This document shows, in pieces, positions 30,928-51,400 of a stretch of DNA of 64,000 nt. Origin of the DNA: an uncultured bacterium (lineage in GTDB: Bacteria; Omnitrophota; Omnitrophia; Omnitrophales; Aquincolibacteriaceae); the NCBI GenBank assembly GCA_964385615.1, contig CAYLPP010000004.1, positions 108,743 through 172,742 on the forward strand, written 5' to 3'. A model generated the notes under the pieces. That model was not told where the DNA came from. It searched no databases and worked only from the letters and a program-made list of their open reading frames with translations. Position numbers and translations under genes: made by a program. Numbering within the stretch: the first letter of the stretch is position 1; each line of letters starts with the position of its first letter.

Positions 30928-31304
30928 CTGCGCCTGAAGCCAAAGGTGCCAGGGAAGATACGGCTTTTGAAATTCGTTTCTACGAAGGCATCTTGACCCG
31001 GTCGCCCGATTTTGTGGACGCTCTTTTCCCTTTGGCTGAGCTTTATACCCGCACGGGTCTTTACGAAAAAGGCCTTGAAACTGACCAGAAACTCGCCAAG
31101 CTTTGCCCCCGGGATTCCGGCGTTTTTTATAATCTTGCCTGCAGTTTAGCTTTGACCGGCAGTAAAAATTCCGCCCTGGAGACTCTTGAGAAAGCCGTGG
31201 ATTTGGGCTATTGCGACGGCGATCACATGAAGAATGATCCTGATTTAAAATCTCTGCACGGGGAAGATGCTTTTCAGGCCCTTCTTAAAAGACTTCGGGC
31301 ATGA
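30924..31304 (+). CDS. TPR-repeat protein
   Basis: 126 aa with 34-residue helical-repeat periodicity (..LAELYTRTGLYEKGLE.., ..YNLACSLALTG..). Confidence 0.55.
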   Translation: MTAPEAKGAREDTAFEIRFYEGILTRSPDFVDALFPLAELYTRTGLYEKGLETDQKLAKLCPRDSGVFYNLACSLALTGSKNSALETLEKAVDLGYCDGDHMKNDPDLKSLHGEDAFQALLKRLRA

Positions 31305-32541: not shown

Positions 32542-35500
32542 ATGAAAAGTTATAAAAAACCTAGAGCCTTACGGCTGACTGCGCTTGCGGTTCTACTCTG
32601 CTTTCTTACCTCGCAGGGCGGGCCGGAGGCACGCGCTTTTTCGGCTCCTGAAGGCCCCTCGATCCCTCAAAAATTTGTCCATCTCGAGGAGTCCTTTCAA
32701 GGGACTTCCGGCAAAACTCTTCTATTCATTCAGGATGCCCATGAGTCTCTGGAAGCTCAGGAGAATATCGCGAAAGCGATTCAGTATTTCGTGGGGAGCC
32801 AAGGGGTCAAGACGGTGTATGAAGAGGGGTATGAAGGTGAAGTGCCGACGGATTCCTATTTCGCGTTTATCCATGATCCCAAAATCCGCCGGAGAGTCTC
32901 CTATTTCTTTTTGGATAAGCTTCGTATCGGCGGAGCGGAATTCGCCCATATCAACCGGGAAAAAGATTTTAAACTGATCGGGGCCGACAGCATCAAACTG
33001 CATCTTGAAAATATCGCGCAGTACCAGAAAGCTTCGGCCCGGCAAAAGGAAGTCGCTGAAGATCTGCGCGCGGTTTTAACCGAATTTGAAAAACTGGGTA
33101 ATTCTCATTACTCTGAAAAAATTAAAATCTGGCTGAAACTTCGCGGAAGATTTGATTCGAACCGGCTTCCGCTTCCTGACTACCTCAAAAGAACCGCGGG
33201 CCTTCTGGCGGATACCCGCGCTTACCCGCTTATCTCCCTTTTAATCTCGCCGGGCATTAATCAGGACCGGGAAAAGCTTAAAAAGCTTGAAGCCATGGAC
33301 CCCCGTCAGCTTTTTTCTGAAATTGACCGGATGGAAAATGATTTAGCCCAAAAGGAACTTAAGGGGAAAGAAGAACTGAAAATTTTTCAGTATCAAAAAG
33401 AGATCATGCTCCTGGTGCGGTTGAACAATCTTGAGGTCAGCGCTCCGGAATATGAAACGGCGCAAGCTGTTCTGGAAAAACTTCAGACGCGGGAGCTTGC
33501 GGAATTTATTGCCCGTGAAAGTAAGAGGACTCAGGTTCTATCCCGGGAATGGGAAGAGGAAATCCGGCACGCGCTGGATTTCTATAAAATCGCTAATGCG
33601 CGTGATCGTGAAATTGAAAGGGGAATTGAAGGGTTTCTTAAAAATCCGGATGAAAACACCGCGGTTCTGGTTTTTGGCGGATTTCATAAGAACGCGGTGA
33701 AGTCTTTTCTCAGGAGCAGGAATATTTCTTATCAAATTCTCAGCCCAATTATCAGCGGGGAAGACGCGGTTCACAGGGCTTACTACCGTGAGCTGATGTC
33801 TGAGGGATTTTACGATTTTGAAAAAATCGCTGCCCCCAGCCGGGCCGCAAGACCGCAAACTCTCATGACTTTACCGCAGGCGCGCAGTGAAATCCGGGGT
33901 GTTTACCGGACCGCGCTGGATAAACCGGATCTTGAATATCCTCTTTTTGAAAAAGAAGCCGTCCGCGCCTTCAACTCCCCGGCGGCCCGTTCCGAACTCC
34001 GTAAAATGTTCGCCGTGGAAGATGAAGTTGTCAGAGTCGAGATTGCCCAAACTTCCGGCAAGTATGTTCTGAGCGCTTACAACCTGCGTAAACAGGAAAC
34101 AGAGCCGCGTGTTCGGGTGGAGCTGATTGAGCCTTTATCCGGTGAAGAAGAACCTGCCAGGCTTGTGTTGGGAGATATTGTTGAGTCGCATATCCGCGCG
34201 GATGAGTTTTTAAGAAGGGCTCTTTATGTTTTACTGAAAAAATCCAGCGTGCAAATGGTGGGGTACCTTCCGAAAACCGGATCGGCGGAAGAGATGGACA
34301 AAATTTTCACATGGCTCGAAAAACAACCTGGGATATCGCTGTTAAAAGGAAACTCCGCCACGGTCAAGTACGATGCTGCGGAAGTTCTTATGCCCGGGTA
34401 TTTTATCGGGGAATGGAACCGTATCCGCAGTTCGAAAGATTACGGCGAACAGGTTTCGGATTTTCTGGACAGCCTGCTTTTATTTTATTCCAGCGAAACG
34501 GATAAAAAGCATCTTCATGATTTTCTGCTTTTTCTTCTTCGAGATCCGGATTTTATAATCAGACGCCAGGCCGTCGAATTAATGCTTAGGTACGTAAGAA
34601 TTCCTGTCGACCAGATTTTTCTCCACCTTGAAAATCCTGATTCAGGGCCTTTCAGGGATGACCAGGTTTCTCTCCCGAATCCTCTAAGCTCGGAATTGGC
34701 AACCGCGAATAAACGGCTGGCTCTCCTGGTTTTTCTTTCTCAAATTTCACAAGCCGTAAAAGCTCAGCGCTGGGCTGTAGACGCGTATTATGGGGCTGTC
34801 CTCAGACAGAGGTTTGCCAGTGAACTTGAAACTTCAGCCGGAGACCCTGTTTTTGATATCGCGAATGAAAGCGCGCTGATGGAGTCCATACAGAATGAAC
34901 CTAAAGCCGGCTTGGGGCATGCTGGAAAGATGAGTGCGCTGGAAGTTCTGGTCAGGGAATATTTCCGCTATTTGTACGTGACGGAGGTCCGGAAACAGGC
35001 GGATCCTTTTAAATGGCTCCATGATGATTTGTATGCCATGGTTCCTCAACTGAAGATCCCCAAGACTGAAGCGCTCATTATTCGAATGACTTCGAAGTTC
35101 CGCTCCGAACTCAGGACCGAAAATCCATGGGATGGCCGTGTCCGTGAAGTCCGCCTCAATGCGGACCGTTCCGCGGCTTCCGTGGTATTTGAAGACGGGA
35201 AAACGGTTGAGCTGACAGAAAAATTCGAAGAGGGCGCTTACCATGAATTTTTCGCTTATCATGAAAATGGGCGTAGGCTTCTGCTAAAGGTCATGAAGCC
35301 CGGTTTAGACGGGGACCGGTATGACAAGGGCGTAAAGTCACTGGAAAATGAAGCCCGAATATCTGATATTTTGAGACGCGTCAAGCATATGCAGAACGTA
35401 ACCAATGTTATCTGGCTTGGAACGATCCCCGGTTCCGGCGACGCGCTTTTAATTTCCGGACCCGAAGCTCAAAGCCTAAAAGATTGGCGTGAACGTCTTA

Positions 35501-38500
35501 CGCTTCAGGAACGGGGCGGTGTTTTTCGCCAGTACGTGGAGCAGATTTTTCAGGCCTATTCCGGCCCGGAACGCGAGAGTGTCTCGATCCACGATTTGAA
35601 ACCGGCGAATGGACTGCTCAAAGTCACCCGAAATCCCGACGGCAGTCTCCGCTATACGGTGCATGTGATTGATTTGGAAGCCGGAAAAATGACGGAAGAC
35701 ATTCCTTTCCGTGATATCTGGCGCGGCACCTATCCCTACCTGCCTAACGCGGAGCTGATCGCAATGCTGATGACGGAGCTTGGCCGTCACAAAACTTTGG
35801 GGTTGGTTGGTTTTATGGAATTGCTGATTTTCTTTCAGGATTTTGTTCTGGATGATGACGCTATGAACGGGGGAACCGCGAATGTCGAGAAATTTTTGCG
35901 GCGCAAAGACAAAGCGGTTTTCGAGAATATCGTTAAAAAAATCAGTGATTACGAAAAGTACCGGAAAATCTGGTATTACGAGGAGCATCCCGGCGATCCG
36001 GTTGACCTAAACGCGCTTTTCGCGGATTTGATTGAAAGCTTGCGGGTCATTGAGGGGTTTAAGGTTCGAAAAGTTCTATTTGTGGAGAGCTGGTGGAATT
36101 GGTTCGCGGGTTTCATCTCAATGATCTTTCGTAAACTCCTGGCTCTTTTGCCCAAGAGAACCCGCGCGCTGCCTTTCGAATTTAATGATGCGGAGTCGAC
36201 GCGATTGCCGGCAGCGCCTCCGGCGGATGACGGGATTTCGTCCGAAGCGCCTACCCCCAGACCTGAAACCGCGGGAACGGATACGCTTTCTCAGTTCCGC
36301 CGTTTAATGTTTCTTCTGGAAGCCTTGGGCCCTCAGTTCTCAGAAAGAGATTTCGTCCGAAAGGGAAACCGGACGGTGCGTGAGTTAAGTTCTCTTTACC
36401 TGATCGAAAAAGCGGCGGAATCCAACGACGCTCTTGATGTTTCCATTTACGAACAAGCGGAAAATGATGTCCGGCGCGTTTACGGCTGGCTAAAACGGCC
36501 TGTCGATTCTTACGCTGAAGATACGATCCGTTATATCCGTGAAAAATTTATAACCCCGCGTTCCGAGCTCCGGACGGCCGCGCGGGTGGAGGATAACGGT
36601 GTTAAACTTCGTGAAATTCTAGGACGGCTTATCCGCACGCGCACTTCCGGGGAGGTTGTTATTTTGCCTGGAATCTCCCAGCATCCTGCCGTGATTGATA
36701 AAGACACACTCGAAAAAGATAAAAAAGCCCTGACAGATCTGATTCGTTTGTATCTCAAGCAGGCGATCAGCCTGGGTCCGCCTTCTTCCTATTATCTTCC
36801 TTGGGATATTTTTCCCTTTGAGCGGAACTCCATTGAACTTGAAACCTTAGTGTCTCTCGGCCGTTATCTGGGATTTTGGAAAACGGAGCCTGATCCCGGA
36901 AGCAAATTTCCTTCAGCTGCTATTCTGCGCACTTACCGCACGCGAATTCCTCTAATTGGAGATTTTAATCTGCATGGCGACAGTGTTAAAGAAGGCAGGC
37001 TGGCTGAATTGAACGATCTTGAGCGTCTGGAGATTCTTCACCGTGTTTTTGCTGAAGTGAAGACGGAAATGGAAACGGAAATGCTCCCCGGATATTTTGA
37101 TATGAGCGGGCCTTTGCGTTTCGATTCTTTCAGGGAGATTCCCGGCATTGACGATCTGGAAGATTTTGAAAGGAGAGGCGTTTTGGGGAAAGGTAAAGAA
37201 GCGGCGGTTTTTTCCGCGGGGACGGGCACTCTTCCCGCGCTTCTGGCGGCTTTCACCCGAAGCGGGAAGATTACCGTTTATGAGAAGAATAGTTATTTTT
37301 TGGCAAAGGCCCGCAAGGCGGTAGAGCGGCTGCATCATCTGGGAGTTCTCGATGAAGGGCGCTTTACCTGGGTCAAAGAAGATTGGAGAAATCAAAAAGA
37401 TGATTGGAAAAAATTTGATTTCATCCTTTTACCGCCGGCCGGACAGAGTGAAAGTCCGGCTTCCGAAAAAGAAATTCAGGAATCGGTATCCGCTCAAGCC
37501 GTTGTTTATAAATTCGCCCGATCTGAAGTCAGATCCGTGAGGGCTTTGATTCAGCAAGCGGACCATCTTGAGAGGACCGGCGCTTTAATTCCGGAAGTTT
37601 CATCGCAGTTTGTGAATCGGCATATGGGGCCTTACCGCACCGCGCTCCAATTATTGACTAACCGGATTTTGGCGGAAGATCTTAGTGATGATGCTTTTCT
37701 TGAGCTTTGGACGGAATACCTTAAGGCTCTGAAAACCGCGGATTTGCCTCTCCTCGTGCAAGTTCCGATTCATATCGTTGCCGTGATGCGGATGCATGGC
37801 GCTCAAATGGCGAGCTGGGCGCGTGTCTGGTTTTCAAAACCCAGAAAGGATTGGCGCCGGATCGTTCATGTTTTGTCCGCTGAAGCAGGAGATGAAACGC
37901 TCATGGGAACCTTGCTTCGGCGGGAGATTCTGCCGTTCATGGATTCTTATATGAACGCCCGTAAAAGAGAATGGATGGATGAGAAGACGCCTGAAGACCG
38001 CGCTGCAAGATGGAAATATCATTGGACCCAGGCGGGTGAGAATCCGGGCGTGGAAGCGGTAGAAAAAGCGGGCTCTGATTATCTGGAGGAATTTATTCAA
38101 GGATTGCCGGTTTCTTTCCGCCAGACGGATCCGGGCAAAGACTGGCCTTCGCAGAGTCAGAGTCTTTTGGAAATGCTGAGTCCCGCGGGCGACGGGCTTT
38201 TAAGTCTGATTATTGAAGCTGAGGAAAAGAGCGGATTAGACGCCTCTCAGTTGATTGTGCAGTTTGATGAAAGATTAAATTTCCTTCCGGCGTTCGTGCA
38301 CAAGCTTTTTATGAATGATTTGCTGAAAAAATACAAAGTCTATCTTTTAAAGATTTGGCTGCGTAATCTCCAGGAACAGGCGGGATTTGAATATCAGGCA
38401 GGAGATTATTTCGGGCAAGTGAAAATCACCATAGAAGCCAAGGCAAATGAAGGTGCCGGTTTAAAAGCATATTTTTCGGGAGCTCCGGATTGGAAATTTG

Positions 38501-41500
38501 AGCCGGATGGACGGACTTTAAAATTTCCCGAACTTTCGGGAGTGGAAGATTCGGAAAATCGCCCGGGGATGTTCAAGGCTCCCGGCGTTTTTTGGCAGAT
38601 TTTAGGAGATTTTCAGCTGAAGTTTCTGGAAAAAGACGGGCGCAGAATACTGGTTCCGATCGCTTATCTGGAAGAAGTTCAATCTTCCACAGGTTATAGG
38701 GATATTCGAAATAGAACGGAGCATCTTAAAAGCGCGCGTAAACTGAACCGGGGCCGGACTCTGGCTGTGGACGCTGTCGCGCGCGCGGCCGCGAAAATGG
38801 GGGTTCTTGTTATGGCCCGCGGTCCGGAAACCGCGTCTCTTTTTATCTATAACCGCCGGACACTCGCGCAGATTGATCCGGGAAGCCGGACGGAAATCGA
38901 AATGCACTATGTCTCGCCTTTTTCCAACACGCAGCACTGGAAAAAAGTGGAAGCGCCTTCTTACGCGGGTACGGATTATTATCTGTTCGAAGGCAACCGC
39001 GAGGTTTTAAAACGTCACGGCTGGCCGGAAGACACGATTCAGCAGCTTCTCCGCTCAGAAGTCCGGAGAGATCCCCGCGAAAATATCCGCATGGACTTAA
39101 CTGAAAACTGGCGCCGGTTTCTAAATGGCGAGGCCGCGGATCCTGAAATCGCAGATCAGGTGGAGCGGGCTTTAAAATCGAAACTGGATCATTATCTTTT
39201 GATAACCGCGCTGATACGGCTTCACGTTTCCCAGGCGGTTACGGAAGAACAAATATTTTCGGGGCTCGAAAGGCTGATGGAGTCCGTGAGTACCGAAGGC
39301 AAAGAATATCTTTCCATTCTCGGGATCATTCTGAGTCAGCGGAATTTCGCGGAAGGTTTTGCGGGTTTGAATCCGGAGAGCGGCGCTTTTTATTTCGACT
39401 TGATCGGCATGACGCAGACGGGTGATGTGCTCCCTGAAGTCCGGCCTTTGAATCAGCGCAATGAAGCCGTGGGCGCGCTCTTGAATTTGGATGCTCCGGA
39501 TAAAAAAACGCTCATGGATGGTGTCAGGGACGTCACGGGTGAGAAAGCTTTAACCCCGGAAGATTTAAATCCGCTTACGGATATTGTCCGGATTCAGGCC
39601 GGAGACACTCAGGATGTCTACATGATTTCGGCGCTCCTTAAAGACGGACGCCGGGTTCCTTTTATTTTAATGGCAGCCAGGGGCCGGACCGCGCTTCGTG
39701 CCGTGAGAAGGGAGTTTGAAAATTTTGAACCTTACCGGGATGATGAAAGAGCGGTTCATGTTATTGGCTGGAGTCAAACCGGCAATGAGGCAGGCTACAC
39801 GAGCCGATTTTCCAATACTGAGGAAATTATCTATGTTTCCATGAGCGAACCGGCTCTTCATGGAGAGACACCCGGGAATTTTACCAAAAATTCCGACCTT
39901 CCGCTTCGTGTCGGTGAAATTAGAGGAGCAGAAAGCCTGCGCAAAATTACAGCCGCGTTCGCGTCCGCGATTGTTTATTTTTACAAGGCTGATTTAAAAA
40001 GAAGCGTCCAGTTTATTGTTAGTTCCGCCGGGGATCTTAATTTTTACGATTCCGACTTTCAGCCGATCGCGGAACAGCCGGGGAAATACGAAGTGAAGCC
40101 CGAAGTTGAGAAGCTCCGCACACGGCTGATTGCTTTTCGAGGCTACAATGATGAGGTTGATCCCGCGCATTTGATCGCGGAGCTTTTCGATTTTACTTAT
40201 TTTACTCCCGACAGTTCTGATCTTATGACCGGTCCTGTTCATGATGACGCGATGATCCAGGGTGTTCTTGATGGTCTGGTTCAGGGACTGGAGGATAAAC
40301 TGAAAGACCCGGTTCTCGCGCGTAAGACCGCCATGGAATGGCTTCAAGCCTATCTGAACGCGTTTAGTGATTATGAGAATCCCGTTTTCGGCCCGCCCAT
40401 CAATGTTATCCCTGAAGTCCGCGGGCGGATTGCCCGTCTCCGCCGCGAAGTTAAGCAGGCGGAAAAGCGCTCAGAGCTGAGGGTAAACCCGAAGTCTGAA
40501 GGTCTGGATTTGAATGGTTACGCGTGGCTGAAAGAATTACCCGTGGCGCACTTCAAGGAGCTGAAGGATTTTTTGGAGATGCTTTTCGGCCTGGATCAAA
40601 GCGGGAAACTTTTGGAATTGGAGAAGAGAGAGAGAATTCTCGAGCAGTCAGCGTATTTTTTGCGTTTATTCCAAGACCGCGTTAAATATCCCCGGGGGTT
40701 TGATGAGATTCCCCCGGGTATATTTGCCCATTCCGCCGGAATGTTTTTTATCAGCAATTTATCGTATCTGGGTATTTACAGACAATTGGAATCAGAAGGC
40801 GTGCTTCAGCCGGGTGCGGTTAAAAACCTGATAGAGCTGGGGCCCAGCTTTTGGAATTATTCCTCCGTTCTCCAAAAAGCTTATCCCAACCTTCAGCATG
40901 CTCTGGGGGTGGACAATGATCCCGCCAAAACGGCAGGTTTTCAGCAAGGTGCTGTACAGCTTTTAGGTGTTGACCCTGCCGTTTTTCAGTATGAGATCGC
41001 GGACTTTAAATCGCTTGATCAAAATCAAAAAATCCGGCAGTGGATGGATCAAAACGGAAAATCCGACGTTCTATTTCTTCAAAACCCAGAGCCTCAGAGC
41101 CGTCCGGGTGTTTTCTTTACAGTGCCCGAATACCGCGATTTTTTAGCGCGTGCCGGAAGCCTGCTTGATGAAAAAGGCAAGATGATCGTGGTCATTGATG
41201 AAGACCGTCTCGATCATGACGGAAATCCCGAACTTTTATCCGTCATTCGAGGGCTTGTTTATCAAACTTTAACCGGATTCCGAATTCCTCAGCAGGCTGG
41301 ATTTTTAGGAATGCCGGAACTTCGGAAGGTGAAAATTCTGGCGATTCCTCAGCCGGAACTTGTCCGCTTGGCTCAGCGCTCCGAAATGCGCGCGCTCAAT
41401 TTTACGCCGGTTTACGCGGTGGAGGAGCGGATTGAACTGATTGAAGAAATCCGCAAGCAAAGCGCGCTCAACTCAGAGCCCCCGTTTGTGATTCTTGAAG

Positions 41501-44500: not shown

Positions 44501-47500
44501 AACAGTCGTTGGACTCGATTTTTGAAAAAGAAAAGAACCGGAATCTTTCGGTTTACGAACAGGATCTTTTTGATTTTTACGTAAACGGGGAAGGCCGGGA
44601 CGTGCCTTTGGAATACCGCCCAGGGATGCATGGGGGAACAGGCTATTTCGGAAATGATAATGATAAAGGCCGGCCTTACGTCTGGTTCAGCGACGGCCGG
44701 ATGATCAGTAGCCGGTTCCGGGATCCCCGTTCTCCATTTGAAATATTTAAACATGAAGCTTCCCACACGATGGACGCCATCATGGAAAGAAAAGGCGATT
44801 CTAATCTGAAGGGGTATGCCGGTTTTCAGGGCCAGACCAATTCGGGAGTCGATATCTTTTATGTTCCTCAGCATCGGCTGGTTTACCAGGAATTTCGCGC
44901 CAACCTCTGGACTTACGACGGGAATCCCGGCCTGGCGCTCAAAGCTACTTTGCAATCCTATCCGGAACTGCGCACTCTCTTTAATGGAATCGCGGATGTT
45001 GAGAAAAAACCAGCTCCTGTTTTGTACACAGCCTTGAAATGGATGAGCCGTGACATGAATGACCAGCTTTATCCGGATTCAGTTTCCGATATCGGGCAAT
45101 TTGATCAGATTTACATTCACTGGTACCTCGAATTCGCTTCCGGACGGGTTAAAAAACTCAAACGCTCTGAGCTGCGTATGGAAGATATCAACACTATGAA
45201 CGCTTCAGAACTATTTCAGAAACTTCGGGACTCGAGGCTCGGCGACCTGGAAGAGCGGGCGGAGCTTCACCGGCAGTGGTCGGAAGTTCCCGCGGAAAAG
45301 CGCAGGCGGGGCGTGGGAATGATTGTTCTGAGGAAAATCGGCGGGGAATGGAAGGTTCTCTTTGGCCGGCAGAATCACGGCCGTTACAACGGTAAATATG
45401 TAGCTCCTTCCGGCGGAGTTGATAAACCTTTTGATCCGGTTTATGAAAATGCCGCTGAAACCGAAATCCTTCTTAAAAGCGGCATTGTGCAGGATTTTGA
45501 CGGCGCGCGCGGCGGAAAAGAATCCGCCCAGGCCGCGGTTCTGCGGGAACTCAAAGAAGAAACAGGGATCGAGGGGCGGATTGCGGCCCGGCTTGCGGAC
45601 CGCTTTGCCGCCGACGACGGTCTTTTTATGACCTATTTTATTCATGTGGATTCCGGCGAAGATGAAACCGTCCCGGAGCGTGATGGGGAAATCGAACCTC
45701 TGATATGGGTTCCGCTCAGCGTGATTCTGAAATCTGAATCCGGCCAGGCCGGGCAGACTGTTGAACGGGAATTTAATATCGAGTTTGTGCCGGGTCTTAA
45801 ACGGCGTGTTTTGAATATTCTGAAAGACCGGATTCAGTCGCTTCCTCGCTCCGAATTGCGCAATTCTCAGGAGCCTTACGAAAAGCGTCAGGGCCCCACG
45901 GATTTCGAATGGGTCACGCTGAATACCGCCCGTTTTTACGATCATTTGCGTCTGTTGTGGAGTTTGACGCCTAATGTCGCGAAAATCAGGCAGGAATCCA
46001 TGGCGTTCAGCGACGAAGAAAGAGAATCCTTTTTTGATTGGATTGTCCTTCCTTCACCCGCGATGCCGCCGGCGGAATCGCTTCGAAAAATTCTGCATTT
46101 AATCGTAGAGCAGCGGATTCTAGCCAGTCAAAGTAAAAACAGCGATGCTATTTTAAACGCGAATGACTGGGCCGATGTGCTGGCTTACCGCTGGAAAGTT
46201 CCGCCTCAGGTTTTGCAGGCGTTGTTTTTATGGATGGCGCGTTCTTCAATACGCCCGTCGGAAGTTTCGTCTCAGACGCTGATCGATTTTATGAATGCTT
46301 TCATCAGCAGTTACACTGAGGGAAGGCCAAAAGCTTATCAATGGACGCATTTTGGGCCCGCGATTCCCGCCGGTGAATCGGCTGAAGCTAAGCTGAATCG
46401 CGTGACTGCCAGTATTAACACGGCCAAGGCGCTGTTCGGTGAAGATTTTGTGCGGGGGAAAACGCGTTTTATTTCCCGTATCGGCGATTCGCCTTACTAC
46501 ATCGGATTCGGTTTCGGATTCGCGTCTGAGGATCCGTTCCGTCCCACGCTGATTCTAGGTGAGTGGAAAGACGGACAGAAAAATGTTTTTGAACGGGTTT
46601 TCTTTAAAATGAGTTTTGATATTGCCGATACCGGCCGTTTGCAGATTGTCACACTCAAAGGGATCAAGGGCAAAGAAACGGTTATTACCGATTTTCGTTC
46701 CGCGATGGGCGGCTCTCTGGGGCCCGGCCGCGCGCTTTTGACTGCTGCCGCAGTTTTCGCCCGCAAATATAGTTACCGCGAAGTTCTTGGATTAAAAGGG
46801 GAGCATCATACGACCGCTCCGGACGGAAAGCCTTTGAATTACAGCGCGATTTATAAAGGATTCGGTCTCCGTAAAAATTCCAAGGAGGGCCCCTGGCAGT
46901 CGACGGACGTTCTTTTTGAGCGGTTCTCCAGAATCCGGGCAGCGGGTGACGCCAACGCGCAATCGCTTACCCGTTTTCTCGAGGTTTCAGAAAAAATACT
47001 GCCGGCGATCCCTGCCCGCTCCGAACTGCGTACTGAGGAGGAGGATTTTTCCAAAAGCCTCCGGCACATTGAGCTTAAAAAATCCATGACAGACGTAGAA
47101 ATCAAGAAAGTCAGCGACGGATATCCGGGCAAAACACCGATGAGGGGGAAAACGCCGGTGACTAATAACCGTCTGTTGACGAAGATTTTGGACCGGCAAA
47201 AGGGCGAACCCCGTTTTCCTTCGTTGCTGGCCGGGAAACATGTTCTTTTAATCGGGCCGTCGCCGGAAGGCGATGATCTGGAGGCGCTGATCAGACGTTA
47301 TCCTGGGATCGGTAATATTTATCTCGTGGACGCAGACGAAAGAGTTTTTATCGGCAATGACCGCAAACTGCAGGATATGCAGGCCTCAGGAATTGCTTTA
47401 CCCAAAGTGGAAGGTTACAAAATTAACGCGCTTGAATTACCCGGGGAGTGGACGGAGCAAGTCGATGTCGCTATTCACGCGATGGTCATTGACCAGTTCT

Positions 47501-48279
47501 TTTTCAATCCGGCGCAGATCGGGCAGTTTGCCAATGAGATGGTCCGTGTGCTCAAACCCGGCGGCGCTGAGCTTTCCGTCGTCTTTGCCGACGATATTCA
47601 CGCTGGAGACGGGCGAATTCAGAAAATCAATGACTCCCTGCATCTCAAGACTGCCCGCTCTGAAATTCGTCTGGCCGCGGTGCAGCCGACGCTTAACGTG
47701 CGTCAGTCGCTTAAGAATCTGAAAACGCCCGCGTTGGTTTATCTGGATTATAAAAACCTGATGGAAAAATTCTGGGATTCCGAAAAGAACACCTGGAACG
47801 AGCAGGGGATGGAAATTATCGCCATGACCGCAATGCACCCGGACAAAATCCGTCTGGTGATTTCAGGCGCGGATCTGATGGATGACCGGCTGAAAGCTTT
47901 TCGGGACTTGCGGGATTCCGGGAAGAATGTGCGGATCACGGACTTGTCCGCGGCTGAAGCCTATGAAGCTTCGCAAAAGGATTTCATTAAGGGCTGGAAA
48001 AATCATGTGAGTATTCATCTCTCCAAGGATCTGCCCGGGCTTAAGAACTCTTTTAATAAAACCCAGCAATCTGAGATTTATTTCTTCCGTTACGCTCGCC
48101 AGGACAGGCAAGGCGGCTTGCTGGCGGCGGCTCTGCTCTGGGCGCAATACGCGGAAGACGGCAAAACAATGGACGGTGTTACCCGGGATGAAGAAGGTTT
48201 CCTGACCCTGACGGAAGGGTTTATCCGCCAGATCATTCAGAAGTACGAAGCCCGTCTGGTTGTCGCTTTCTCGGCGTAA
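32542..48279 (+). CDS. Giant secreted multi-domain protein (5245 aa) carrying a series of unrelated enzyme-like modules
   Basis: Uninterrupted 15.7-kb ORF. It opens with a signal peptide (MKSYKKPRALRLTALAVLLCFLTSQGGPEARA/FS). Motif-level modules are listed as separate features below. Confidence 0.8.
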   Translation: MKSYKKPRALRLTALAVLLCFLTSQGGPEARAFSAPEGPSIPQKFVHLEESFQGTSGKTLLFIQDAHESLEAQENIAKAIQYFVGSQGVKTVYEEGYEGEVPTDSYFAFIHDPKIRRRVSYFFLDKLRIGGAEFAHINREKDFKLIGADSIKLHLENIAQYQKASARQKEVAEDLRAVLTEFEKLGNSHYSEKIKIWLKLRGRFDSNRLPLPDYLKRTAGLLADTRAYPLISLLISPGINQDREKLKKLEAMDPRQLFSEIDRMENDLAQKELKGKEELKIFQYQKEIMLLVRLNNLEVSAPEYETAQAVLEKLQTRELAEFIARESKRTQVLSREWEEEIRHALDFYKIANARDREIERGIEGFLKNPDENTAVLVFGGFHKNAVKSFLRSRNISYQILSPIISGEDAVHRAYYRELMSEGFYDFEKIAAPSRAARPQTLMTLPQARSEIRGVYRTALDKPDLEYPLFEKEAVRAFNSPAARSELRKMFAVEDEVVRVEIAQTSGKYVLSAYNLRKQETEPRVRVELIEPLSGEEEPARLVLGDIVESHIRADEFLRRALYVLLKKSSVQMVGYLPKTGSAEEMDKIFTWLEKQPGISLLKGNSATVKYDAAEVLMPGYFIGEWNRIRSSKDYGEQVSDFLDSLLLFYSSETDKKHLHDFLLFLLRDPDFIIRRQAVELMLRYVRIPVDQIFLHLENPDSGPFRDDQVSLPNPLSSELATANKRLALLVFLSQISQAVKAQRWAVDAYYGAVLRQRFASELETSAGDPVFDIANESALMESIQNEPKAGLGHAGKMSALEVLVREYFRYLYVTEVRKQADPFKWLHDDLYAMVPQLKIPKTEALIIRMTSKFRSELRTENPWDGRVREVRLNADRSAASVVFEDGKTVELTEKFEEGAYHEFFAYHENGRRLLLKVMKPGLDGDRYDKGVKSLENEARISDILRRVKHMQNVTNVIWLGTIPGSGDALLISGPEAQSLKDWRERLTLQERGGVFRQYVEQIFQAYSGPERESVSIHDLKPANGLLKVTRNPDGSLRYTVHVIDLEAGKMTEDIPFRDIWRGTYPYLPNAELIAMLMTELGRHKTLGLVGFMELLIFFQDFVLDDDAMNGGTANVEKFLRRKDKAVFENIVKKISDYEKYRKIWYYEEHPGDPVDLNALFADLIESLRVIEGFKVRKVLFVESWWNWFAGFISMIFRKLLALLPKRTRALPFEFNDAESTRLPAAPPADDGISSEAPTPRPETAGTDTLSQFRRLMFLLEALGPQFSERDFVRKGNRTVRELSSLYLIEKAAESNDALDVSIYEQAENDVRRVYGWLKRPVDSYAEDTIRYIREKFITPRSELRTAARVEDNGVKLREILGRLIRTRTSGEVVILPGISQHPAVIDKDTLEKDKKALTDLIRLYLKQAISLGPPSSYYLPWDIFPFERNSIELETLVSLGRYLGFWKTEPDPGSKFPSAAILRTYRTRIPLIGDFNLHGDSVKEGRLAELNDLERLEILHRVFAEVKTEMETEMLPGYFDMSGPLRFDSFREIPGIDDLEDFERRGVLGKGKEAAVFSAGTGTLPALLAAFTRSGKITVYEKNSYFLAKARKAVERLHHLGVLDEGRFTWVKEDWRNQKDDWKKFDFILLPPAGQSESPASEKEIQESVSAQAVVYKFARSEVRSVRALIQQADHLERTGALIPEVSSQFVNRHMGPYRTALQLLTNRILAEDLSDDAFLELWTEYLKALKTADLPLLVQVPIHIVAVMRMHGAQMASWARVWFSKPRKDWRRIVHVLSAEAGDETLMGTLLRREILPFMDSYMNARKREWMDEKTPEDRAARWKYHWTQAGENPGVEAVEKAGSDYLEEFIQGLPVSFRQTDPGKDWPSQSQSLLEMLSPAGDGLLSLIIEAEEKSGLDASQLIVQFDERLNFLPAFVHKLFMNDLLKKYKVYLLKIWLRNLQEQAGFEYQAGDYFGQVKITIEAKANEGAGLKAYFSGAPDWKFEPDGRTLKFPELSGVEDSENRPGMFKAPGVFWQILGDFQLKFLEKDGRRILVPIAYLEEVQSSTGYRDIRNRTEHLKSARKLNRGRTLAVDAVARAAAKMGVLVMARGPETASLFIYNRRTLAQIDPGSRTEIEMHYVSPFSNTQHWKKVEAPSYAGTDYYLFEGNREVLKRHGWPEDTIQQLLRSEVRRDPRENIRMDLTENWRRFLNGEAADPEIADQVERALKSKLDHYLLITALIRLHVSQAVTEEQIFSGLERLMESVSTEGKEYLSILGIILSQRNFAEGFAGLNPESGAFYFDLIGMTQTGDVLPEVRPLNQRNEAVGALLNLDAPDKKTLMDGVRDVTGEKALTPEDLNPLTDIVRIQAGDTQDVYMISALLKDGRRVPFILMAARGRTALRAVRREFENFEPYRDDERAVHVIGWSQTGNEAGYTSRFSNTEEIIYVSMSEPALHGETPGNFTKNSDLPLRVGEIRGAESLRKITAAFASAIVYFYKADLKRSVQFIVSSAGDLNFYDSDFQPIAEQPGKYEVKPEVEKLRTRLIAFRGYNDEVDPAHLIAELFDFTYFTPDSSDLMTGPVHDDAMIQGVLDGLVQGLEDKLKDPVLARKTAMEWLQAYLNAFSDYENPVFGPPINVIPEVRGRIARLRREVKQAEKRSELRVNPKSEGLDLNGYAWLKELPVAHFKELKDFLEMLFGLDQSGKLLELEKRERILEQSAYFLRLFQDRVKYPRGFDEIPPGIFAHSAGMFFISNLSYLGIYRQLESEGVLQPGAVKNLIELGPSFWNYSSVLQKAYPNLQHALGVDNDPAKTAGFQQGAVQLLGVDPAVFQYEIADFKSLDQNQKIRQWMDQNGKSDVLFLQNPEPQSRPGVFFTVPEYRDFLARAGSLLDEKGKMIVVIDEDRLDHDGNPELLSVIRGLVYQTLTGFRIPQQAGFLGMPELRKVKILAIPQPELVRLAQRSEMRALNFTPVYAVEERIELIEEIRKQSALNSEPPFVILEGGKGSGKSTLARQIAGSLSQKEPGREGVVIEADWFHRVPSGLTAQLRRLAGLFFWMILRWVRILSEEAFNQKIFEAYFDQEALQRFLHDLGSARTSSEPVPVKIRDHIKKEDVSVLIGRRTPVVFEGMLSTFLLKGWSGIRVHVMTPGARARERYKAREKQKGKGNFRIFMESHDFLAGWFNRHGRKVQFDYGYVTTANFLKDSAWTMIQLSGGKGTRMGPGVPKPLRQLKGKPLFEYSLDTAKRNGLPVIAVGSSNQDLRKALKPRVQGYVEEESSVESAFFSPLSKYGFLKGNLVFIGGDTVITDPSILRSLMLAHEKKSLIPALMTFSTVRVSNPQGLDRVVRDSKGRYVTFIKQEEIEWLRSSGQTLKLGDGTELKTSELDAINEVWPAVIAMSAFAYRILGFLLKFKDAFTVPKFVKKKTISVDKILNRGARRRFLMALGAVRIHQIEQKDAILNINTPQQLEEAERTLTARSELRTSQAAELVRDLQRWKLGFHSEGFALEIYAREILLLKELGILNESSSVFSFLTGADFLPGLFAGKFYSTEKRFNAEQMGRIWSLTAKRDAFKSNLPVSDAEMEALKAKTEHEQADVLNPEFIKRWTGKMKAGDTVYLRFVPEHLSDGVGRRDVRKIETWLDQLITLAPDGVHFVIFDFNESSLPGGTAGYLQSRYAGILTDEIKFRLGKEEYLEWQKINEWEILGRHLKRVSLSLDGQLMDLAQGGRLTVLTKPPARSESRNLPDAQPPVEISFEKIDGFMQEIRSLMARKPWNLYNISEKEEYVADAAKAYLEKIQGILESVSAEVKTSKDAVRLRLLETAAEDFDYFLNVLILLENRELKEVSWNRLEKGQGIHHYFKFDYKSRTYSVEVFARWSRGQGPEARFEINFPQQDRESFRLDLSSYLGNSRASFDMPTSVRKLVPDHTELFHHNIPDLSYQENFQNYVIGLDQKISRSELRGSLPLIETSAKKPRRDPELVEKMKLRITVVGATAEDIAKGQQSLDSIFEKEKNRNLSVYEQDLFDFYVNGEGRDVPLEYRPGMHGGTGYFGNDNDKGRPYVWFSDGRMISSRFRDPRSPFEIFKHEASHTMDAIMERKGDSNLKGYAGFQGQTNSGVDIFYVPQHRLVYQEFRANLWTYDGNPGLALKATLQSYPELRTLFNGIADVEKKPAPVLYTALKWMSRDMNDQLYPDSVSDIGQFDQIYIHWYLEFASGRVKKLKRSELRMEDINTMNASELFQKLRDSRLGDLEERAELHRQWSEVPAEKRRRGVGMIVLRKIGGEWKVLFGRQNHGRYNGKYVAPSGGVDKPFDPVYENAAETEILLKSGIVQDFDGARGGKESAQAAVLRELKEETGIEGRIAARLADRFAADDGLFMTYFIHVDSGEDETVPERDGEIEPLIWVPLSVILKSESGQAGQTVEREFNIEFVPGLKRRVLNILKDRIQSLPRSELRNSQEPYEKRQGPTDFEWVTLNTARFYDHLRLLWSLTPNVAKIRQESMAFSDEERESFFDWIVLPSPAMPPAESLRKILHLIVEQRILASQSKNSDAILNANDWADVLAYRWKVPPQVLQALFLWMARSSIRPSEVSSQTLIDFMNAFISSYTEGRPKAYQWTHFGPAIPAGESAEAKLNRVTASINTAKALFGEDFVRGKTRFISRIGDSPYYIGFGFGFASEDPFRPTLILGEWKDGQKNVFERVFFKMSFDIADTGRLQIVTLKGIKGKETVITDFRSAMGGSLGPGRALLTAAAVFARKYSYREVLGLKGEHHTTAPDGKPLNYSAIYKGFGLRKNSKEGPWQSTDVLFERFSRIRAAGDANAQSLTRFLEVSEKILPAIPARSELRTEEEDFSKSLRHIELKKSMTDVEIKKVSDGYPGKTPMRGKTPVTNNRLLTKILDRQKGEPRFPSLLAGKHVLLIGPSPEGDDLEALIRRYPGIGNIYLVDADERVFIGNDRKLQDMQASGIALPKVEGYKINALELPGEWTEQVDVAIHAMVIDQFFFNPAQIGQFANEMVRVLKPGGAELSVVFADDIHAGDGRIQKINDSLHLKTARSEIRLAAVQPTLNVRQSLKNLKTPALVYLDYKNLMEKFWDSEKNTWNEQGMEIIAMTAMHPDKIRLVISGADLMDDRLKAFRDLRDSGKNVRITDLSAAEAYEASQKDFIKGWKNHVSIHLSKDLPGLKNSFNKTQQSEIYFFRYARQDRQGGLLAAALLWAQYAEDGKTMDGVTRDEEGFLTLTEGFIRQIIQKYEARLVVAFSA
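32700..33780 (+). other. N-terminal domain of giant ORF 1, shared with giant ORF 2; possibly TraB/GumN/Tiki-like
   Basis: LFIQDAHESLEAQ ... VFGGFHKN in ORF 1 parallels LVLHVQNIHGNYEAQ ... LVTGGFHTQ in ORF 2. A first-His motif near the N-terminus and a GGFH motif about 320 aa later resemble the TraB/Tiki GxxH pair. Confidence 0.35.
35240..35800 (+). other. Protein-kinase-like / aminoglycoside-choline-kinase-like module in giant ORF 1
   Basis: Catalytic-loop-like IHDLKPANGLL (HxDxxxxN, about 35587-35613), an upstream LLLKVMKPG (candidate VAIK lysine) and a downstream DLEAG (DFG-like). Confidence 0.45.
37190..37445 (+). other. Class I SAM-methyltransferase-like module (1) in giant ORF 1
   Basis: Motif I-like AVFSAGTGTLPALLA, an acidic post-I residue in ITVYEKN, and a motif IV-like FDFILLPPAG (compare FDLIVSNPPY of HemK-type enzymes). 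Confidence 0.35.
41500..41526 (+). other. Walker A P-loop (GGKGSGKST), kinase-type NTPase module in giant ORF 1
   Basis: VILEGGKGSGKSTLARQIA followed by VVIEADWF (hydrophobic strand plus Asp, Walker B-like). It resembles small-molecule/nucleoside kinase P-loops. Confidence 0.5.
42127..42430 (+). other. Sugar-phosphate nucleotidyltransferase (NTP_transferase) module in giant ORF 1
   Basis: LSGGKGTRMGPGVPKPL matches the (L/A)GGxGTR(L/M)xPxTxxxPKPL signature of RmlA/GlmU/LicC-type nucleotidyltransferases. FIGGDTVI lies downstream. Confidence 0.6.
44752..44766 (+). other. HExxH motif (HEASH), candidate zinc-metallopeptidase-like site in giant ORF 1
   Basis: FEIFKHEASHTMDAIM sits in a region with no other recognised fold. 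The motif alone is weak evidence. Confidence 0.25.
45300..45730 (+). other. NUDIX hydrolase module in giant ORF 1
   Basis: Canonical Nudix box GGKESAQAAVLRELKEETGIEG (Gx5Ex7REUxEExGU) at about 45511-45576, preceded by a beta-rich GVGMIVLRK segment. Confidence 0.7.
47236..47600 (+). other. Class I SAM-dependent methyltransferase module (2) in giant ORF 1
   Basis: Motif I-like KHVLLIGPSPEGDDL, then VDVAIHAMVIDQF and the classic RVLKPGG motif. Confidence 0.55.
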
Positions 48280-48332
48280 CCGTGCAGGTCCGGTCGAATA
48301 CGGTTTTGCATATGATGGTCATATGGGCGGGC

Positions 48333-48360
48333 TTGTTTATTTAAGGATTTGGGGTATATT
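48333..48360 (+). promoter_or_regulatory. Candidate sigma70 promoter for giant ORF 2 (TTGTTT, 16-nt spacer, TATATT)
   Basis: The hexamers lie in the 169-nt AT-rich spacer between the two giant ORFs. Spacing was counted by hand. Confidence 0.25.
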
Positions 48361-48448
48361 TTAATGCGGATTTATTTTTCTTTAATAAGGGACTTGTTTT
48401 TATTTTACGGGGGGATATCAGGCAATTTACATAAAAAGGCGAGCGAAA

Positions 48449-51400
48449 ATGGTCATGACGAAAAGGAAGAAAAAAATCCGCAAGATTTTTACCTTGGGGA
48501 TCCTTTTTTGCTTTTCCGCCACAAATATCTGGGCAATGCCCGAACCCGGTCTTATACTCCTTCCGCAAAAAGAAACGCCCGCGTTTCTGCAGGTTGAAAT
48601 TCCAAAAGACATTGCTTCGATTGAAGAGGTTTATGAAGCTCCGCCCAAAAGCGATCCGCGTTTAGTTCTTCATGTGCAGAACATTCACGGCAACTACGAA
48701 GCGCAGATGCAGATCAAGAAACTTCTCGATTACCTTTACAAACGCTACGCTTTTAAACTTTTATTTGTGGAAGGTGCCGTCGACACTCTCGATCCTGCCT
48801 ACCTTAAACTCTTTTCTGAGGAAGATCGAAATCAAAAATTAGCCGATTACCTCGCGAAGCGGGGAGAGCTCACCGGCATTGAAACTTACATGATGGAAGC
48901 TCCCCGTGATGTCCGCGCGGTGGGCATTGAAGAGCCCGCTCTATACCGTAAAAATCTCGAAGCTTACAAAGCTGTGATGTCTAAAAGAGAAGAAACGGAT
49001 AAGTTCCTCAGGCGTTATGAAGAAAAGCTCGAGCTTTTGTCTTCCCGAAATTTCTCTCCTGAGACCCGGCGTTTAATCAGTGAATGGAAAAAGTTCCAGG
49101 ACGGCCAGCGTGATTTCCTGCCCTATGTGAGACGTCTTTCTCAGGATGCCCGTAAAATTATCGGACTCGATCTCGAAAGTCTTTTCGCTCAGGTCGAGTG
49201 GCCTCAAATGACCCGGCTTTTAGTGCTCCAATCGATGGAAGCTGAGTTGAATCTTGAATCGGCTCAAGATGAAAAACAAAAGGTCTTGAGTTTTTTAAAA
49301 GAGAAAAAGATATCGTCTGAAATTTTAACTGCCATTGAAAAACTGGGTGAGAAACGCATTACGATGACGCGTGAAAATTCTGAAGCCGCCCGCCTGGAAG
49401 ATTTGCCCCGTTACCTCTTGGAGCGTCTTGTCGATGAAGCCAGCCCTCGAGGTTTTTACTTCCACGACTATCCCGCTTTTAGCTTGTGGGCCGGTTATCT
49501 GATTCTTCAAAGCGAGCTTGATTCGAGGACTCTTTTTGATGAAATTGAGAGGGTTTTCGAGAAGACGCTCGATCAGCTGACGGTAACCCAGGGTGAAAAA
49601 AATCTGATGGAACTTTACCGTGACGAACGTCTTCTCAATAAACTTCTTCATCTTGAACTGACCCGTAAGGAATGGGAAAAGGTCAGCTACCGTAAAGAAT
49701 GGAACCATCCCTCGGCTATGCTGAACCGCCTTAAAAAAATAGGGCAGGAATTTGACTCTCGGTTAAAAAGGACTCCGGAAACTTTGGTGCCCAAGCAGGA
49801 AGTGACAGGCATGGAAGAATCTCCGGAGTCTGAAGAATTTCCGATGAACGGTCTTTTTGAAACCGCTGTGAGCTTTTACGATTTTGCCCGCGAACGCGAG
49901 GCTGTGTTTATGAATACGATCAAAAAGGAAATGAGCGCTCAGAAAACAGAAAAAGCCGTGCTGGTTACCGGCGGGTTTCACACGCAGGGTATTTTAGAAA
50001 TGTTCCGTGATGATGAAATTAATTATAGCGTGCTTATGCCGAGGATCGCGGGAAGCGACCTGAGCACCGACAATTACGTTACTAATATGCTGGAAGACCG
50101 CAAAACCATGTTCGACATCGCAGGTCTTGAAGCCATTATTAAACTTCAAAATGCGGACCGCAGAACCCAACAGGGTGCCGACGCGGCTTACGAAGTGAAA
50201 AGAACGCTGGAAGCCTACGCGAAGTTTACGGGTTCTGAAACGCTTGCTCAGCTCGTTAATCATTTTAACGTTTTCAATCAATCGGCTTTCTCAGTAGGCT
50301 ATAAAGTAACGCTGGAAACGGTGCTCAATCAAGATAACCAGCCTTACGGCGTTAGAATTTTAGTAAACGGTCAGCCTCTGAAGAAAAATGACAGCGATAA
50401 GCGGGACATTGTCATTCCGATCATGACGGGTAAGAATCCGGAAACCAAACTCCCTGAATTTCGACTCGCGGATCACGCGGTGCTTAGGATTGGCGAGTCA
50501 GTGACTTCTCGTTCTGAGGTAAGAGGGGTAAGTGAAGCGGAGAAGGCTCAATTTGAAGCAATGCTTGGAAGGTTGCGGGGTTTAGGAGAGGGATATCTGG
50601 CGGCACTGCAGACTGGAATTACGCAAGTGATCCAGGCCGGTGAGGGGGGTGTTTTTGATTGGGCCACGAGTGACAGCGGTCATAAGGCTTACCGTGAATT
50701 ATTCGGAACGAATACGGGAACGGTCAATTATGGAAAGTTTGAAAATGCGGCGGCGCGGCAATTAGCCTCCACGATCGCAGGATTTATTCTGCAGTCGGGA
50801 TTGAAACCGAGAAGCTCAGCCGATCAGCAGGAACTGCTTGGAATCTTAACTCAATATGGAAAAGAGCAGGAAACAGCTGGTGAAAAGCCGTCCTCTGTCA
50901 AGCCGCAAGCCGGTGCTTGGAATGCCGAAATGACTGCAAGATTTCCTGCTTTTACGGTTTCGGTGGATGAAATTGAAGTGCCCGAAGCCCCGGTTATCGC
51001 GGGCAGGAGAGTGGAAGGATTCATGAGAGGGCTTCCTGAAGCCGGGGAGTTTCAGCGCGCGTACGGAGCGCTGGTGGGAGCGCGGGATTGGCTTGAAGAA
51101 GCGGGGCAGTTGGAAGGCGGGGAATTATTCAGTCAATGGGCGCAGGCGGTAGGACTGGTGCGGGAGATTCTGTGGATAATCAGCTACCGTACTGAGGGCC
51201 AGCGGTCTGCTCTCCCGGCTTTATTGAATCAAGCGATTGATGAGACGGTGGATTTGAACGGGAGTGAGTTGGCCTTCAGAGAGTCCGGGCTTAAGAAGCT
51301 GGAGCATTTGAGACAGGCGCTAATGCAGAATTTTAATTGGCCTGTGCCGAGCTTTATTTCAAAGTCTTTTTTGATAAAAGCTGAAGACGCAGCCGCTCGT

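Follow-up and report, generated by a model that had tools for sequence, protein, structure and literature searches.

Published work on the giant genes of Omnitrophota has left open whether their products act whole or cleaved, and describes the points of cleavage as unknown (West-Roberts et al. 2023; 2026 complete-genome preprint). Two neighbouring genes of one genome, that of an uncultured Omnitrophota bacterium, raise the same question. They lie on the + strand of contig CAYLPP010000004.1 (assembly GCA_964385615.1), within a stretch of 64,000 nucleotides (nt; contig positions 108,743 to 172,742) that we call the window and whose numbering is used below. The first open reading frame (ORF), ORF1 (32542-48279), encodes a modular giant protein of 5245 amino acids (aa); ORF2 (48449-55159) encodes a modular protein of 2236 aa, identical in sequence to the family representative P0058. 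Both proteins begin with the same domain, here called the head, and in both a five-residue motif, R-[S/A]-E-x-R, recurs along the tail behind it. The head is very probably a new divergent family of the Ere/Tiki/ChaN (TIKI) superfamily, and the question is whether such a head might cut its own tail at the motif.

The head and its nearest relatives

The head of ORF1 spans approximately aa 36-420 (32647-33801) and that of ORF2 approximately aa 46-550 (48584-50098). The two N-terminal regions are homologous, as BLASTP aligned aa 14-217 of ORF1 with aa 15-229 of ORF2 (2e-9) and aa 344-421 with aa 473-550 (2e-8). A preliminary description of this DNA had drawn attention to an early and a late histidine motif in a shared N-terminal domain, and these are present in both proteins: QDAHES (aa 64-69, His67) and GGFH (aa 379-382, His382) in ORF1, and QNIHGN (aa 77-82, His80) and GGFH (aa 508-511, His511) in ORF2. 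The size of 350-450 aa and the motif spacing of about 320 aa given there fit ORF1, whose histidines are 315 aa apart, and do not fit ORF2, where the distance is 431 aa and the domain is larger (~505 aa) because its helical insert is longer. Likewise, the GxxH..GxxH pattern suggested at the time describes the second motif, GGFH, and not the first, which reads Q-D/N-x-H.

A profile of 14 head sequences matched 9,333 representatives (clusters at 50% identity) at E <= 1e-3 and 5,791 at E <= 1e-30. In every match listed the head begins no more than ~120 residues from the N-terminus, and the proteins range from 436 to 6,720 aa. The source-named homologues are all proteins from Omnitrophica/Omnitrophota metagenome-assembled genomes (MAGs) except P0018, which is labelled Verrucomicrobiae. 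No model for the head was found in Pfam and NCBIfam at E-values up to 10, where the matches were weak and unrelated (best E 0.007), and PADLOC and PHROGs also returned weak unrelated matches (E >= 0.019). A single weak Pfam match to DUF5694 (E 0.0054, 1/40 homologues) could not be placed and was not used. Among PDB sequences, neither single head sequences nor a profile built from 15 of them found a relevant match.

Despite this sequence isolation from known models, a small set of residues is fixed throughout the family. His67, Gln73, Glu95, Gly147, Phe347, Tyr348, Arg354, Gly379, Gly380, His382 and Pro402 (ORF1 numbering) are invariant in 172/172 full-length heads, which are otherwise ~20-45% identical to one another. 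Among them are both histidines and the intervening Glu and Arg, the residues on whose conservation the preliminary description had laid weight. The putative catalytic His67 (32740-32742) lies in the motif I-Q-D-A-H, after strand 1 (aa 59-64 in the model described below), and the putative catalytic Glu95 (32824-32826) lies 28 residues further on, at the end of strand 2 (aa 91-94). Gly147 and Asp149 (32980-32988) form a G-x-[D/E] motif on strand 3 (aa 144-148), in which the second position is always Asp or Glu. Arg354 (33601-33603) is located in the helix before the second His (aa 342-367), in the motif F-Y-x-x-A-x-x-R-[D/E], and is followed by Asp or Glu in 166/172 heads. The second His motif, Gly379-Gly-Phe-His382 (33676-33687), follows the strand at aa 373-378. 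The corresponding residues of ORF2 are His80 (48686-48688), Glu108 (48770-48772), Arg483 (49895-49897) and GGFH (49970-49981), and His80, Glu108 and Arg483 are likewise invariant. In both ORF1 and ORF2 the Glu lies 28 residues beyond the His, and the spacing from Arg to the second His in the head is also 28.

AlphaFold models of ORF1 aa 1-450 and ORF2 aa 1-560 had confidence values (predicted local distance difference test, pLDDT) of 86 and 85.5, respectively. In the ORF1 model an alpha/beta core with the order strand-helix-strand ... helix-strand-helix-strand is divided into two halves by a helical domain of 190 aa (aa 151-341, 32992-33564); the equivalent insert of ORF2 measures 305 aa and is thus ~115 aa longer. 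In the ORF1 model, the conserved residues sit as would be expected for the C-terminal edge of a parallel sheet. The ORF1 model was compared with 350,542 PDB chains using Foldseek. The top five matches (3b55, 6xcq, 2rad_B, 6xcs_A and 2rad_A) were all members of the erythromycin-esterase (Ere) family, with E-values of 7.7e-3 to 2.6e-2 and probabilities of up to 0.92. Lower in the ranking were ChaN (2g5g, rank 25) and the Ere-family structure 2qgm (rank 43). A search of BFVD returned uncharacterised giant-virus proteins alone (E >= 5e-3).

The same relationship was found by profile comparison. Ere sequences were obtained by searching a plasmid collection with an Ere-like peptide; this gave 361 records, and where a listed match overlapped an annotated feature, the label was in most cases erythromycin esterase or ere(A)/ere(D). 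Twelve diverse sequences were used. The alignment of 172 heads matched these 12 in hhalign with a score of 40.5 (E=2.5e-4, probability 43%), compared with 16-19 for reversed sequences and 18.4 for the accepted pair of Ere and TraB (YbaP), both of the latter as shallow alignments. ORF1 aa 56-111 were paired with Ere aa 32-88, which placed His67 on the His of the Ere GExxH motif and Glu95 on the strand-2 Glu. A second, collinear block placed Arg354-Asp weakly on the R-D-x-x-M of Ere (E 0.075-0.26). The alignment ends at Gly379, and the equivalence of His382 with the second His of Ere (HNxH) is by position only. The family alignment has two sequence branches, A and B, and these reached the same register when compared with Ere separately (A, E=2.3e-4; B, E=3.1e-3). 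The register was also kept with a 92-sequence Ere profile biased towards one subfamily (E 5.5e-3 to 1.5e-2); the 80 metagenomic Ere sequences added to make it, 52-61% identical to one subfamily, lowered the hhalign score. Branch B aligned with this profile over 109 columns, in which 'VGIEE' of ORF2, around Gly159, stands opposite 'FYGLDLY' of Ere (with the Ere-invariant G136 and D138) at the level of whole segments.

The spacings of the conserved residues agree as well. The His-to-Glu distance of 28 is found in 90/92 Ere sequences, in Bcr135 (H85/E113) and in RRSP (H3902/E3930; PMC6254334). The distance from Arg to the second His is 28-33 in Ere, compared with 28 in the head and 29 in RRSP (R4001-H4030; PMC6254334). 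Kinship with the TraB/GumN/Tiki group and erythromycin esterase, as proposed in the preliminary description, is seen by way of the esterase branch, to which the head is nearest. Some profile similarity to this clan and a related fold were found, with all scores modest, whereas TraB itself was not reached: hhalign against 60 YbaP sequences (TraB family; enterobacterial, effective number of sequences 2.2) gave E=0.44, although the Arg pair and the His pair were aligned, and the comparison with a single YbaP sequence was not significant. Pfam matches of the heads to PF01963 or to Tiki or ChaN models, which had also been suggested, were not found. Assignment of the head to the TraB/PrgY/GumN family (PF01963) was rejected on these grounds, and assignment to the erythromycin esterase family proper (PF05139) was rejected for want of a match to the family's hidden Markov model.

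The Ere enzymes (EreA/B/C/D, Bcr135/136; PF05139) are the best fold and profile matches of the head. Like it, they have a His after strand 1, a Glu at +28, a Gx[D/E] motif on the third strand, an R-[D/E]-x-x-hydrophobic sequence in the helix that leads to the second His, and a helical lid between the core halves. They differ in the motifs themselves, with G-E-x-[ST]-H-G in place of I-Q-D-A-H and H-N-x-H in place of G-G-F-H. Ere enzymes also stand alone at ~400-450 aa, whereas the head follows an export signal at the N-terminus of proteins that can exceed 6,000 aa. A second group of relatives is that of the TIKI endopeptidases (Tiki, the MARTX module RRSP and TraB/PrgY), which share the 2His/Glu/Arg active-site logic and similar spacings. 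This superfamily includes the site-specific endopeptidases RRSP and Tiki (PMC6254334), and site-specific cleavage is the activity that we propose for the head. In contrast to these enzymes, the head lacks the second Glu and has no direct profile link to TraB, and while RRSP is a variable effector module of MARTX toxins, the head is the constant part of its proteins. The term metalloprotease, used in the preliminary description, is not warranted, as metal independence has been reported for both RRSP and Ere (PMC6254334). Judged from its pattern of invariant residues, the head is probably an active hydrolase.

In front of the head, ORF1 has a hydrophobic helix at aa 8-31 (32563-32634; helix 8-24 in the model) preceded by 4 Lys/Arg, a candidate signal peptide or signal anchor identified from the sequence and a hydrophobicity scan. 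By the same criteria ORF2 has a hydrophobic segment at aa 13-31 (48485-48541) that ends in ...NIWA/MP and is preceded by 7 Lys/Arg. A hydrophobic N-terminal 15-mer was found in 148/171 family members with a complete N-terminus, with a median of 3 Lys/Arg and no acidic residue ahead of it, and in sequence this segment resembles Sec signal peptides or N-in signal anchors. The hydrophobicity scan showed no convincing internal transmembrane segment in ORF1 or ORF2.

A recurrent motif and the modules between its copies

The motif was first seen when the regions just past the two heads were compared, which read ARSEIRGV in ORF1 and SRSEVRGV in ORF2. ORF1 has 14 copies of RSE[VILM]R and ORF2 has 3, compared with an expectation of 0.04 and 0.014, and in a scan for SE[VILM]R there was an Arg ahead in every case. 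For the consensus derived from the family, R-[S/A]-E-x-R, the counts are 15 in ORF1, where composition predicts 0.35, and 5 in ORF2, where it predicts 0.13. Outside these two genes, RSE[VILM]R was not found in any of the six frames of the window, nor R-[S/A]-E-x-R in the 13,870 aa of its other + strand ORFs. Across the window and five other loci, 28 motifs were counted in 13,432 residues of family proteins and 1 in 47,597 residues of other ORFs; with so low a background, a general compositional artefact was rejected. The motif codons differ synonymously between sites and the flanks are unrelated. It follows that the five residues are under selection as protein rather than as DNA, and a DNA-level repeat or recombination site was rejected for the same reason.

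The first motif of ORF1, R-S-E-I-R (aa 448-452, 33883-33897), is located in a low-confidence linker just past the head (pLDDT <50 at aa 427-450). The other 14, each of 15 nt on the + strand, start at 33988, 35101, 36559, 37519, 39052, 40468, 41377, 42928, 43708, 44365, 45163, 45847, 47017 and 47656, the last ending at 47670. In protein numbering the ORF1 motifs start at aa 448, 483, 854, 1340, 1660, 2171, 2643, 2946, 3463, 3723, 3942, 4208, 4436, 4826 and 5039. The five motifs of ORF2 are all R-S-E-x-R, also of 15 nt and on the + strand, and start at 50510, 51947, 54155, 54188 and 55115 (the last ending at 55129), that is, at aa 688, 1167, 1903, 1914 and 2223. In both giants the motif thus recurs approximately every 200-500 aa. 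Closely paired motifs were also seen, 35 aa apart past the ORF1 head (aa 448-487, 33883-34002) and 11 aa apart in ORF2 (aa 1903-1918, 54155-54202), and relatives such as P0062 and P0069 have close pairs too. If both motifs of a pair were cut, short peptides would come free.

The motif is also frequent in the wider family. A count over the tails of 187 members gave 452 copies of RSE[VILM]R, compared with 2 expected. Ala is tolerated at position 2 (117 times in the same tails). Strongly disfavoured are Lys at the ends (7 at one, 3 at the other), Thr at position 2 (6) and Asp at position 3 (8); on either side of the motif there is a slight excess of Ala, Ser, Pro and Thr. Of the branch-A proteins with tails >300 aa, 94/97 carry at least one motif. 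The median distance from the head to the first motif is 48 aa in branch A and 128 aa in branch B. Individual proteins tend to favour one variant, as in P0127 (RSESR, 9/9), P0144 (RAEVR, 15/16) and P0181 (RSELR, 11/12). RSELR accounts for 9/15 sites in ORF1 and for 0/5 in the adjacent ORF2. This homogeneity within proteins hints that recognition of the motif is encoded in the same protein.

The regions behind the head are unrelated between family proteins and include S-adenosylmethionine (SAM) methyltransferase, NUDIX, radical SAM, glycosyltransferase, WD40, HEAT and APH kinase domains, besides many modules of no recognised type. In ORF1 the matches are to NUDIX, a MobA-like NTP transferase, AAA_16 and, weakly, a methyltransferase, all in the C-terminal half; those of ORF2 are to WD40 and phosphoribosyltransferase. 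The NUDIX domain of ORF1 (aa 4253-4395) is bracketed by the motifs at 4208 and 4436, and the methyltransferase match (aa 4910-5008) by those at 4826 and 5039. Furthermore, ORF1 aa 488-858, 859-1344 and 2176-2647 (window 34003-36573 and 39067-40482) recur in reversed order in the 3676-aa protein P0176, at aa 2627-2994, 2139-2620 and 1662-2137, with identities of 25-63% across the matches. The projected ends of these ORF1 modules fall 0-4 aa from the motifs of P0176 itself. The motif thus marks the limits of cassettes that are reshuffled from one protein to another.

Homologues of the last module of ORF1 (aa 5044-5245, 47671-48276), which is ~200 aa long and without a Pfam match, occur in 17 further members of the family. 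The four listed have it at the C-terminus as well, and the module may be a conserved tail domain.

Proposed cleavage at the motif and competing explanations

Since the head and the motif occur together on proteins that otherwise have little in common, the mechanism that we favour joins the two. The protein would be exported or anchored through its N-terminal helix, and the giant would behave as a polyprotein in which enzyme modules of ~200-500 aa are separated by R-[S/A]-E-x-R. The head, keeping the His...Glu(+28)...Gx[D/E]...R[D/E]...His set with a large helical lid between the core halves, would use a water activated by His and Glu to cut at or beside the motif, in cis or in trans, and cutting would release the modules. 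The preliminary description had suggested that the domain may process the modules behind it, and the motif along both proteins lends this idea circumstantial support. The logic would be like that of MARTX toxins, in which a conserved protease domain frees effectors by cutting the linkers between modules (PMC6315884). Here we infer the catalytic activity, peptidase rather than esterase chemistry, the role of the motif as a cleavage site and the action of the head on it. Polyprotein processing as a whole is the likeliest of the explanations considered, though a little short of probable, and the specific claim that the head is the enzyme acting on the motif is doubtful. More doubtful again is the widest form of the idea, in which thousands of secreted Omnitrophota polyproteins would be cut by a constant Ere/Tiki-fold peptidase at a strict motif, with each head tuned to its own variant.

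The likeness to MARTX toxins is one of logic only: giant modular proteins, one constant domain, shuffled modules and, in ORF1 and ORF2, a defined motif between modules. Pfam detected neither the RTX repeats nor the C80 cysteine protease domain of MARTX toxins in ORF1 or ORF2. The candidate protease is of another fold and at the N-terminus, the site is a strict five residues, and cleavage in ORF1 and ORF2 is proposed only.

Several observations weigh against the processing explanation or against the placement of the head on which it builds. No cleavage has been seen to date. A stand-alone head, P0006 (431 aa; locus L080, 10001-11296, on a 461-kb contig), occurs in the family, and other long members are without the motif, namely P0044 and 14/60 branch-B proteins with tails >300 aa. 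The motif can also lie where a release site would be odd. The C-terminus of ORF2 reads ...LRSEIRATLSFAKAA (aa 2223-2236, 55115-55156), with the motif 9 residues from the end, and in ORF2 and 15 others, 16/143 motif-bearing proteins, it lies 5-17 residues from the C-terminus; in 15/16 of these the tail finishes in Ala-Ala or Ser-Ala. Such an arrangement recalls C-terminal tags of the ssrA type and would suit a tag better than a release site. The comparison of motif variants between ORF1 and ORF2 involves few sites (p ~0.03, hand calculation), and the homogeneity within proteins could result from lineage effects rather than from recognition in cis. As to the head, its fold-nearest relatives are esterases and not peptidases. 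Position -3 to the first His is Gln in 169/172 heads (98%), where Ere has Glu, and position -2 is Asp (115) or Asn (53), where RRSP has its second Glu (E3900); the Glu that precedes the first His in the 2His/2Glu set is missing from the head. In Pfam at E up to 10, PF05139, PF01963 and PF04187 were matched neither by ORF1 or ORF2 nor among the 25 families listed for 40 homologues. The Foldseek TM-scores were low (0.13-0.27), presumably because the lid is oriented differently, and the hhalign probability was 44% at most and fell to 3-7% with the 92-sequence Ere profile. The ORF2 model had no significant match in the PDB, with traces of EreC (rank 31) and HopBA1 (rank 33); coiled-coil and helical-bundle matches to the long insert dominated that search.

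The stand-alone P0006 has the signal helix and all putative catalytic residues, with neither a tail nor a motif, and its neighbour is a fasciclin gene. In the ORFs of at least 100 aa of the 21-kb P0006 locus, including a nearby partial ORF of 1716 aa, R-[S/A]-E-x-R was not found.

The explanation that best survives besides processing by the head is that the head is an active Ere/Tiki-type hydrolase on another substrate, such as an envelope ester or peptide bond, a molecule on the surface of prey or host, or a small compound, while the motif is read by some other factor. That factor could be a different protease, for instance an S8 or C39 peptidase of the kind reported from other Omnitrophota giants; a modifying enzyme or a docking partner would be further candidates. 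The esterase character of the nearest structural and profile relatives, the stand-alone P0006 and the members with a head and no motif would all fit, and West-Roberts et al. propose different peptidase domains for processing. In contrast, the head and the motif are the sole two elements common to otherwise unrelated architectures, the first motif sits right behind the head, and two genes that lie side by side in one genome use different motif variants. In addition, no other peptidase domain was matched by Pfam in ORF1 or ORF2. On balance we consider action on another substrate unlikely, though it deserves serious weight.

A further explanation is that the head has the fold but no catalytic activity and serves as a membrane-proximal anchor, a ligand-binding domain or an assembly platform, with the motif as a structural or docking element of an uncut protein. 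Inactive or binding members of the superfamily do exist, among them ChaN and the C1/C2 domains of PMT, which is without the 2His/2Glu set (PMC6254334). The conserved N-terminal hydrophobic helix would suit an anchor, and the motifs beside the C-terminus resemble a recognition tag. However, His, Glu, Arg and His invariant in 172 sequences of such low identity is the pattern of a working active site, and the inactive example, PMT, has lost these residues (PMC6254334). A non-catalytic head is therefore improbable.

Equally improbable is a convergent or chance resemblance, whereby an alpha/beta domain of other origin would carry His and Glu at strand ends by coincidence and would match Ere through a generic Rossmann-like core and a helical bundle: the Foldseek E-values of ~1e-2 with TM-scores <0.3, the silent ORF2 model, the low hhalign probability that varies with the alignment used and block shuffles scoring up to 44 speak for it (1/200 shuffles reached the observed score, in a null that is conservative because the motif blocks stay intact), whereas five collinear motif pairs in order with the exact 28-residue His-Glu spacing, five top PDB matches from one small family among all chains searched, two branches arriving independently at one register and negative controls of 16-19 against 40.5 speak against it.

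An export signal ahead of NUDIX, phosphoribosyltransferase, SAM-dependent and ATP-dependent modules is puzzling. The same puzzle has been raised for larger Omnitrophota proteins (2026 complete-genome preprint). Delivery of the modules to another cell is a possible but speculative answer.

Genomic setting and implications

The genes around the co-directional ORF1 and ORF2 are ordinary chromosomal genes, encoding MutS, MutL, ThiL-like and IF-2B/MtnA-like proteins, a GT2 glycosyltransferase and a DUF6178 protein. Directly upstream, on the same strand (29245-32440), genes for DUF6178 (560 aa), a TPR protein (126 aa) and the GT2 glycosyltransferase (379 aa) are tightly packed, with 4-nt overlaps in the first two pairs, and ORF1 starts ~100 nt past the third gene; the three may be co-transcribed with ORF1. 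Directly downstream of ORF2 (55324-56739) is an ORF of 471 aa without a Pfam match and without R-[S/A]-E-x-R. The longest ORFs of the window are all on the + strand. GC skew is positive across 1-64000, with a maximum of 0.21 at 50001-52000, inside ORF2. In the gene neighbourhoods of four relatives no conserved partner genes were found.

ORF1 and ORF2 resemble the Omnitrophota giants described previously (West-Roberts et al. 2023; 2026 preprint) in belonging to the same phylum, judged by the MAG names of all but one of the source-named homologues, in their length, their several enzyme modules and their signal peptides or anchors, and in a suspected post-translational cleavage. The published giants differ in size (10,000-147,000 aa) and in having many transmembrane helices and SecA-like, C39 or S8 domains. 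A repeated inter-module motif is not described in the main texts of these two papers under the terms motif, cleavage or linker, and the main text of the 2026 preprint, searched for erythromycin and TraB, mentions neither. In the literature searched, no paper linked Omnitrophota with erythromycin esterase, and searches of literature full texts for the strings RSELR, RSEVR and RSEIR gave nothing relevant among the matches listed. As we read it, the head represents a new family within a known superfamily and has taken on an architectural role that is also new, and the motif-delimited polyprotein organisation may be new in kind.

Once placed in a superfamily, an unmodelled family of >9,000 clusters acquires a chemistry that can be tested by mutating four residues. 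Explicit candidate boundaries come from the motif, with 20 in the window and hundreds in relatives, and a candidate enzyme from the head; the question of whether Omnitrophota giants act whole or cleaved therefore becomes addressable. The motif also offers a principled way to split giants into modules for structure prediction and annotation. If the widest form of the processing idea is true, it would describe a bacterial system for processing polyproteins that combines a new family of proteases with a defined code for cleavage, and would explain both the use of giant multi-enzyme genes and the swapping of their modules as motif-delimited cassettes.

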